Source of the DNA: Escherichia coli
GTDB taxonomy: Bacteria; Pseudomonadota; Gammaproteobacteria; Enterobacterales; Enterobacteriaceae
DNA: 1,341 nt
Direction: 5' to 3' (one strand)
Assembly (NCBI RefSeq): GCF_003334255.1
Contig: NZ_QOWU01000161.1
Below the pieces are notes generated by a model. It searched no databases. It was given only the letters and a program-made list of their open reading frames with translations, and had not been told where the DNA came from. Within the stretch, counting starts at the first letter, position 1. Each line of letters starts with the position of its first letter. Both the position numbers and the translations under genes were made by a program. Below are positions 897-1,058 of the stretch, in pieces.

Positions 897-973
897 TGGA
901 CCGCCATCGAGGACTCGAACCCCGCGCAGCCAGCTTCGAAGGCTGGCGCTCTATCCCGATGAGCTAATGGCGG
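897..973 (-). tRNA. tRNA-Arg (anticodon UCG, reads CGA/CGG); argN-like prophage tRNA
   Basis: Manual cloverleaf, 77 nt: acceptor CCGCCAU/AUGGCGG (C1:G72), D-stem GCUC/GAGC, anticodon stem CCAGC/GCUGG with loop CUUCGAA, T-arm CGGGG-UUCGAGU-CCUCG, discriminator U, encoded CCA. Lies 9 nt downstream of tRNA-Ile. Confidence 0.8.
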
Positions 974-982
974 TATGTGATA

Positions 983-1058
983 TGGTGGCCCTTGCTGGAT
1001 TTGAACCAGCGACCTGGCGATTATGAGTCGCTCGCTCTCACCACTGAGCTAAAGGGCC
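983..1058 (-). tRNA. tRNA-Ile2 (anticodon CAU, presumably lysidine-modified, reads AUA); ileZ-like prophage tRNA
   Basis: Manual cloverleaf, 76 nt: acceptor GGCCCUU/AAGGGCC, D-stem GCUC/GAGC, anticodon loop CUCAUAA, T-arm GCUGG-UUCAAAU-CCAGC, discriminator A, encoded CCA. The body closely resembles E. coli ileX (tRNA-Ile2) as I recall it, rather than elongator or initiator tRNA-Met. A27-C43 mismatch at the base of the anticodon stem. Confidence 0.8.

Follow-up and report, generated by a model that had tools for sequence, protein, structure and literature searches.

The unusual base pairs of a prophage ileZ-argN-argO tRNA operon in Escherichia coli are very probably three unrelated and mild features

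Do the unusual base pairs of three neighbouring phage tRNA genes represent a single trait that sets these tRNAs apart from those of their host, or are they separate features with separate histories? The question is raised by a 1,341-nucleotide stretch of Escherichia coli DNA (contig NZ_QOWU01000161.1 of assembly GCF_003334255.1), which we refer to in its full length as the window. The original prediction for this DNA described an A27:C43 mismatch in both tRNA-Ile(CAU) and tRNA-Arg(UCU) together with a C1:G72 pair in tRNA-Arg(UCG), and grouped them as non-canonical pairing in phage tRNAs. Based upon the analyses below, the observation is correct in substance, the genes concerned form a known tRNA cluster of very wide distribution, and their unusual pairs are allelic features of a mild kind. 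Very probably, the window contains the intact ileZ-argN-argO operon of a Stx-phage-type lambdoid prophage, which adds rare-codon decoding and whose odd pairs are three unrelated mild features. The annotated genes of the window are as follows.

983-1058, minus strand: ileZ, tRNA-Ile2(CAU), 76 nt with encoded CCA (ARAGORN; Rfam tRNA, 72.5 bits; tRNA-Ile in RefSeq)
897-973, minus strand: argN, tRNA-Arg(UCG), 77 nt with encoded CCA (ARAGORN; Rfam tRNA, 55.1 bits)
807-883, minus strand: argO, tRNA-Arg(UCU), 77 nt with encoded CCA (ARAGORN; Rfam tRNA, 65.7 bits)
1099-1341, minus strand: 3' end of the DNA methyltransferase gene of the prophage, which precedes the tRNA genes (RefSeq annotation of a 100% identical locus and the open reading frame listing)
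205-636, minus strand: TerB-family gene (TciA-like), in the slot holding stxAB in Stx phages (database annotations)
44-208, minus strand: DUF3927 gene (TciB-like), in the same slot (database annotations)

The UCU gene thus falls outside positions 897-1058, the span that had been assigned to all of the tRNAs under discussion.

The whole window shares 100% identity with the chromosome of E. coli JE86-ST05 as well as with three other strains. In JE86-ST05, the genes run from the Q antiterminator through a small hypothetical gene, the DNA methyltransferase, tRNA-Ile and two tRNA-Arg genes to the TerB-family, DUF3927, SASA esterase, holin/lysozyme/lysis, terminase, head, and tail genes, a gene order that identifies the locus as a lambda-like prophage. 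The tRNA genes occupy its late region, where Q and the DNA methylase precede them and the accessory slot and lysis genes follow, and they are arranged in tandem on one strand in the order CAU, UCG, UCU (ARAGORN). Their spacers of 9 and 13 nt represent the second commonest spacing among IMG/VR clusters (11 of 42). The same anticodons, order, strand, and position are found in the ileZ-argN-argO cluster of Stx phages of the 933W/Stx2a type. In AP012536.1, the corresponding three genes are annotated ileZ, argN, and argO between the methylase and stx2A; this GenBank annotation, together with our prior knowledge, is the source of the gene names, which we take to apply here. The individual genes are nearly identical to those of AP012536.1 (76/76 positions, or 100%, for ileZ, 74/77 for argN, and 76/77 for argO), with the argN differences located at positions 20a, 60, and 63 and the sole argO difference at position 43. 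Many Stx2-converting phages share ~94% identity with window positions 758-1341, and this homology ends near position 758, just beyond a terminator-like hairpin. The cargo is where the two differ, with TerB/DUF3927 (TciA/TciB-like) genes in the window and stxAB in the Stx phages. Among relatives that share the TerB cargo, ABU 83972 is the closest, with 97.4% identity across the window. One of the Stx phages, Stx2a_1447, also has a strong match to the STnc100 sRNA (Rfam, 153.8 bits) downstream of stx2B (L002 1428-1643, minus strand) that is absent from the window. Our literature search on ileZ/argN/argO yielded nothing relevant, and the Stx-phage comparative papers that it covered made no mention of tRNAs. 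Elsewhere, three tRNA genes have been described per phage of the 933W type and two in phiP27 (PMC4631060). The trio is an already known, long-annotated feature of Stx-type prophages. On the source chromosome NZ_AP022815.1, four places match argO and four match the whole window, which indicates that other prophages there carry paralogous tRNA clusters.

Mismatched stems may simply be a sign of decay, in which case the three genes would be tRNA pseudogenes of a degrading prophage and would yield no functional tRNAs. Several accessory genes of this prophage are indeed frameshifted or truncated in the annotation of the identical locus, the four argO-like places on the source chromosome suggest that copies may be redundant, the argN slot decays in relatives, and C43 lowers the argO model score by 4.4 bits. 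However, covariance scoring against Rfam RF00005 matched all three tRNAs over model positions 1-71 at 55-72 bits, well beyond the gathering threshold of 29 bits and within the range of 48.5-73.8 bits obtained from 20 sampled K-12 tRNAs, a host set for which argU, ileX, ileY, argQ/Z/Y/V, argX, argW, and metT/U were fetched. From these scores it follows that the genes are not pseudogenes. The cloverleafs are valid, as had been anticipated, with at most one non-standard pair per tRNA, intact CCA ends and main identity elements, and fully paired stems in the window's argN allele, while the ileZ allele is unchanged in about 2,776 records. None of the three genes displays a low score, broken stems, or lost identity elements, and we regard decay as very unlikely. 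The mismatches themselves are real, since cmscan flags a single non-standard pair in the CAU tRNA and another in the UCU tRNA, each of them topping the anticodon stem, and A27:C43 is the sole non-canonical pair of both tRNAs when the standard cloverleaf is imposed. Minimum-free-energy folding was discarded as a discriminator; even host ileX was not folded into the cloverleaf, and only imposed-cloverleaf energies were used for that reason. Sub-threshold Rfam matches in the window to Plastid-ycf2, YrlA, SNORD103, and Six3os1 were likewise dismissed. The first of these, a Plastid-ycf2 5'UTR match at 985-1058 on the plus strand (36.3 bits; threshold, 65.7), is antisense to the tRNA(CAU) gene; the model itself probably overlaps the antisense strand of plastid trnI(CAU). 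The view that the phage genes are distinct from the host isoacceptors also holds, with ileZ exhibiting 92% and 89% identity to K-12 ileY and ileX, respectively, argO 71% identity to argU, and argN no more than 73% identity to any sampled K-12 Arg tRNA.

In ileZ, A27 (window position 1032) faces C43 (1016), with G26 and A44 adjacent. The gene is nearer to ileX/ileY than to metT/metU, which differ throughout the stems, and it shares with ileX/ileY the CAU anticodon, the anticodon loop, the 28-42 stem, C4:G69, C5:G68, and A73. The pairs C4:G69 and C5:G68 are the determinants of E. coli TilS (PMC11947777). Only six positions distinguish ileZ from ileY (20a, 26, 27, 43, 44, and 59), and the layer formed by 26:44 and 27:43 changes from A.U/G.U in the host gene to G.A/A.C in the phage gene. 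Host ileX and ileY both contain G27:U43, which is also not a Watson-Crick pair, and they are the only two of the 20 sampled K-12 tRNAs without a Watson-Crick 27:43. An A.C wobble pair is isomorphous in shape with a G.U pair; hence, phage ileZ keeps the geometry of its host counterpart and no pair is broken. The A.C version is also far from being a peculiarity of the window. Of the 5426 complete E. coli genomes, 3057 contain an ileZ-type gene, with up to 12 copies per genome, and the window's exact allele accounts for 2776 of the 3068 matching E. coli records. Among 118 IMG/VR CAU tRNAs, collected with a search pattern that left positions 26, 27, 43, and 44 free, 92 contain G26, A27, C43, and A44 together. 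Furthermore, across 67 aligned clusters, diversity is 0.003 within ileZ versus ~0.30 in the flanks, a value partly biased by a search pattern that fixed positions 28-42, although the positions outside 28-42 vary just as little. A27:C43 of ileZ is a fixed standard allele under strong purifying selection, in place of the host G27:U43.

A broader view of the same anticodon arm comes from a scan of species-representative genomes, in which the same pattern retrieved 119 chromosomal CAU tRNAs. The 27:43 pair is G:U in 72 of these, A:U in 20, C:U in 11, and U:U in one, while nine with C:G and three with U:A have Met-like acceptor stems by look. The remaining three are A:C, one being a prophage gene of E. 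albertii and two occurring in unrelated lineages. A stricter rule, that 27:43 is never Watson-Crick in this class of CAU tRNAs, is weakened by the 20 A:U cases; a weak or wobble top pair is nonetheless usual for the class. The C27:U43 mismatch was seen in Enterobacterales chromosomal genes of Yersinia, Enterobacter, Klebsiella, Pantoea, and Budvicia (L174, L175, L180, L194, and L209). Another type of phage tRNA(CAU), in which G27 faces A43 and which also has U26 and C44, is encoded by L017, L020, L021, L024, L039, and six more IMG/VR loci; here, too, the top pair of this same anticodon arm is not Watson-Crick.

That the hinge bases of ileZ (G26, A27, C43, and A44) are so extremely conserved could reflect some specific property under selection rather than a neutral exchange of pairs with the same shape. 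One such property would be an open stem top, whereby a 4-bp anticodon stem widens or speeds decoding by ileZ (AUA, using C34 or lysidine-34) and by argO (AGA/AGG). Unpairing of 27:43 is reported to raise near-cognate reading in E. coli, and tRNAs with 4-bp stems and C34 have been proposed to read A-ending codons (PMC13092985). By having no standard 27:43 pair, ileZ and the window's argO fit this group, whereas argN (C:G) is outside of it; that study centres on tRNA-Trp(CCA) reading UGA and does not include phage tRNAs in its main text, and the resemblance of ileZ and argO to its tRNAs is one of stem sequence. In addition, positions 26, 27, 43, and 44, which are nearly invariant, account for four of the six sites that separate ileZ from ileY. 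Against this, 27:43 is already a weak G:U in the host tRNA, C43 of argO is rare and recent with no sign of wide selection, and an unmodified CAU reading AUA would risk charging with Met. We consider an adaptive open stem improbable overall. The same low estimate applies to its most specific version, in which the G26.A44/A27.C43 hinge would be a selected 4-bp stem that alters ribosome or TilS behaviour, for example by better or less lysidine-dependent AUA reading during phage late expression, with the unpairing having arisen again in argO.

The argO mismatch has a different history. Here, A27 (856) faces C43 (840), whereas U43, which forms a normal A:U pair, is found in both Stx2a_1447 and ABU 83972. 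Nine full-length exact E. coli records contain the C43 allele, all of them close kin of the window, compared to up to 1336 for U43, and C43 is present in one of 79 argO copies of IMG/VR contigs. The substitution reduces the Rfam score from 70.1 to 65.7 bits and raises the imposed-cloverleaf energy from -22.0 to -20.8 kcal/mol, a cost of ~1.2 kcal/mol. C43 is evidently a rare, recent, derived U-to-C transition restricted to one small prophage sub-lineage, and it is probably nearly neutral. The E. coli ArgRS identity set consists of A20, C35, U36/G36, and a purine discriminator (position 73), and argO contains A20, C35, U36, and G73. Since 4-bp anticodon stems occur in 5.6% of bacterial tRNAs (PMC13092985), a single such tRNA is unremarkable, and given this background and the independent origin of the A:C pairs of ileZ and argO, their co-occurrence needs no special explanation. 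The two A:C pairs are of independent origin and constitute no shared phage signature.

The third feature belongs to argN and is of yet another kind. C1 (973) does pair with G72 (901), exactly as predicted, but the description of this pair as non-canonical was mistaken, as it is an ordinary Watson-Crick pair that is unusual only in its orientation; among the 20 sampled K-12 tRNAs, it occurs in proM only. Consequently, the three features cannot be treated as one phage trait of non-canonical pairing: their histories are separate and one of the pairs is canonical. The stems of argN are fully paired without a mismatch, with a single G.U in the T stem (51:63) and C:G at 27:43. A more deviant feature of this tRNA, absent from the original prediction, is its U73 discriminator (900). 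U73 was found in none of the 20 sampled K-12 tRNAs, and argN, which contains A20, C35, and G36, has it where the ArgRS set has a purine. Aside from this U73, the known TilS, IleRS, and ArgRS identity elements all appear, from sequence, to be present in the three tRNAs. Among the 51 scorable argN copies (52 IMG/VR copies in all), C1:G72 is found in 50 and U73 in 51, and both are fixed, stable traits of the lineage. None of the seven K-12 Arg tRNA genes that were read has a UCG anticodon, and to our knowledge these seven constitute the full K-12 set. An ARAGORN call of tRNA-Arg(tcg) in the K-12 argQZYV locus was rejected as an artefact on the strand opposite argV. In Pasteurellaceae, several chromosomal tRNA(CAU) copies (L134, L151, L157, L177, and L178) have acceptor stems that also open with C1:G72.

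The conservation of argN is the lowest of the three tRNAs, with a diversity of 0.18. It is encoded by 1061 complete E. coli genomes versus 3057 for ileZ, and the exact allele of the window is found in up to 174 E. coli records. Over 27 argN alleles, 97.4% of stem cells are paired, and variation is located mainly in loops or yields G.U pairs. A covariation count over these alleles found no double changes because the alleles are too similar, and hence all it demonstrates is that stem pairing is retained. In 22 related IMG/VR loci (e.g., L012 4266-4366, L015 3318-3397, and L022 7153-7252), the argN slot is degenerate and uncalled by ARAGORN; in some of these slots, a deletion of 11 nt removes the anticodon loop, while others keep argN-like acceptor, D, and T arms around a different, non-pairing middle segment. 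The low conservation together with the degenerate slots suggests that argN, at least, may be dispensable. Related loci also encode a second Arg tRNA that has an argN-like C1:G72 acceptor stem together with a UCU anticodon and G73 (L030 743-819, L032 4658-4734, L037 1452-1528, L038, L071, L072, and L073). It is found in clusters whose tRNAs are CAU, UCU, Thr(UGU), and Gly(UCC), and may represent an anticodon change on a shared scaffold.

How these tRNAs could be expressed and what they might provide can be considered from two predicted elements that flank the genes and from the codon usage of the prophage.

1068-1096, minus strand: TTGAAG-17 nt-TATTAT, a predicted sigma-70-like promoter that ends 9 nt short of ileZ (consensus scan; the match alone is not significant)
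769-792, minus strand: terminator-like element 14 nt downstream of argO, consisting of a G+C hairpin (792-775) and a subsequent T run (scan)

The upstream region has a mean diversity of 0.30 across the 67 related clusters, and its only conserved islands are the -35 TTG and the -10 TATTAT; the hairpin 3' of argO is kept in ABU 83972 and Stx2a_1447. The conserved islands and the hairpin suggest a self-contained tRNA operon, which may be expressed in lysogens; the operon may be read from the Q-dependent late promoter as well. Relative to a 50-kb housekeeping region of K-12 (15,080 codons), the coding sequences of the prophage (13,367 codons) were enriched 2.2-fold in AUA, 5.5-fold in AGA, 8.8-fold in AGG, 3.6-fold in CGG, and 1.5-fold in CGA, with P values ranging from 0.04 (CGA) down to <=4e-16 (AGG and CGG). 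These are exactly the codons that the three anticodons would read. Most likely, therefore, the tRNA trio adds decoding capacity for E. coli rare codons that are enriched in prophage genes; the location and the enrichment are observed, whereas expression, modification, and charging are inferred. TilS would convert C34 of ileZ into lysidine, allowing ileZ to read AUA, while argN would read CGA/CGG and argO AGA/AGG. Within such a scheme, A27:C43 of ileZ would retain, in place of the host G27:U43, the weak top pair usual in its class, C43 of argO would be a single recent and nearly neutral transition, and C1:G72 with U73 would be a stable lineage trait of argN in which the pair is canonical. The benefit of rare-codon supply may be modest, as the codon adaptation of lambdoid phages with these tRNAs is neither better nor worse than that of lambdoid phages without them (PMC4631060).

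An entirely different benefit would be escape from tRNA-cleaving toxins or defence nucleases, with the phage tRNAs sustaining translation once the host tRNAs have been cut. Phage tRNAs resistant to anticodon nucleases are known in other systems, colicin D targets Arg tRNAs, and the identity of both argN and argO to host Arg tRNAs is only ~70%. However, the loops cut by the known nucleases are the same in phage and host (CUCAUAA in ileZ and ileX/ileY, CUUCUAA in argO and argU), which makes escape unlikely, and the enrichment of exactly the decoded rare codons is more simply explained by codon supply. We give nuclease escape hardly any credence.

Rare-codon supply, the preferred reading, also has parallels among other lambdoid phages. 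SfI, Sf6, and P21 encode tRNA genes in the same position downstream of Q, for which a rare-codon role has similarly been proposed, and such genes are common downstream of Q in further lambdoid phages (PMC3636060). The tRNA species of SfI, Sf6, and P21 are Asn/Thr tRNAs and hence differ from those of the window. Some IMG/VR relatives pair ileZ with Thr, Gly, or Lys tRNAs.

Taken alone, the finding of odd pairs is of little weight, given that 27:43 mismatches are common in bacterial tRNAs. What is added here is the separation of three histories, namely a fixed and selected A.C in ileZ, a rare and recent mutation in argO, and a canonical C1:G72 in argN, as well as the match between the trio and the rare codons enriched in the prophage. 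If it were true that the ileZ hinge tunes decoding, then this tRNA, whose gene type is carried by more than half of complete E. coli genomes, would serve as a naturally occurring, very widespread test of the recent proposal that codon reading is widened by 4-bp anticodon stems.
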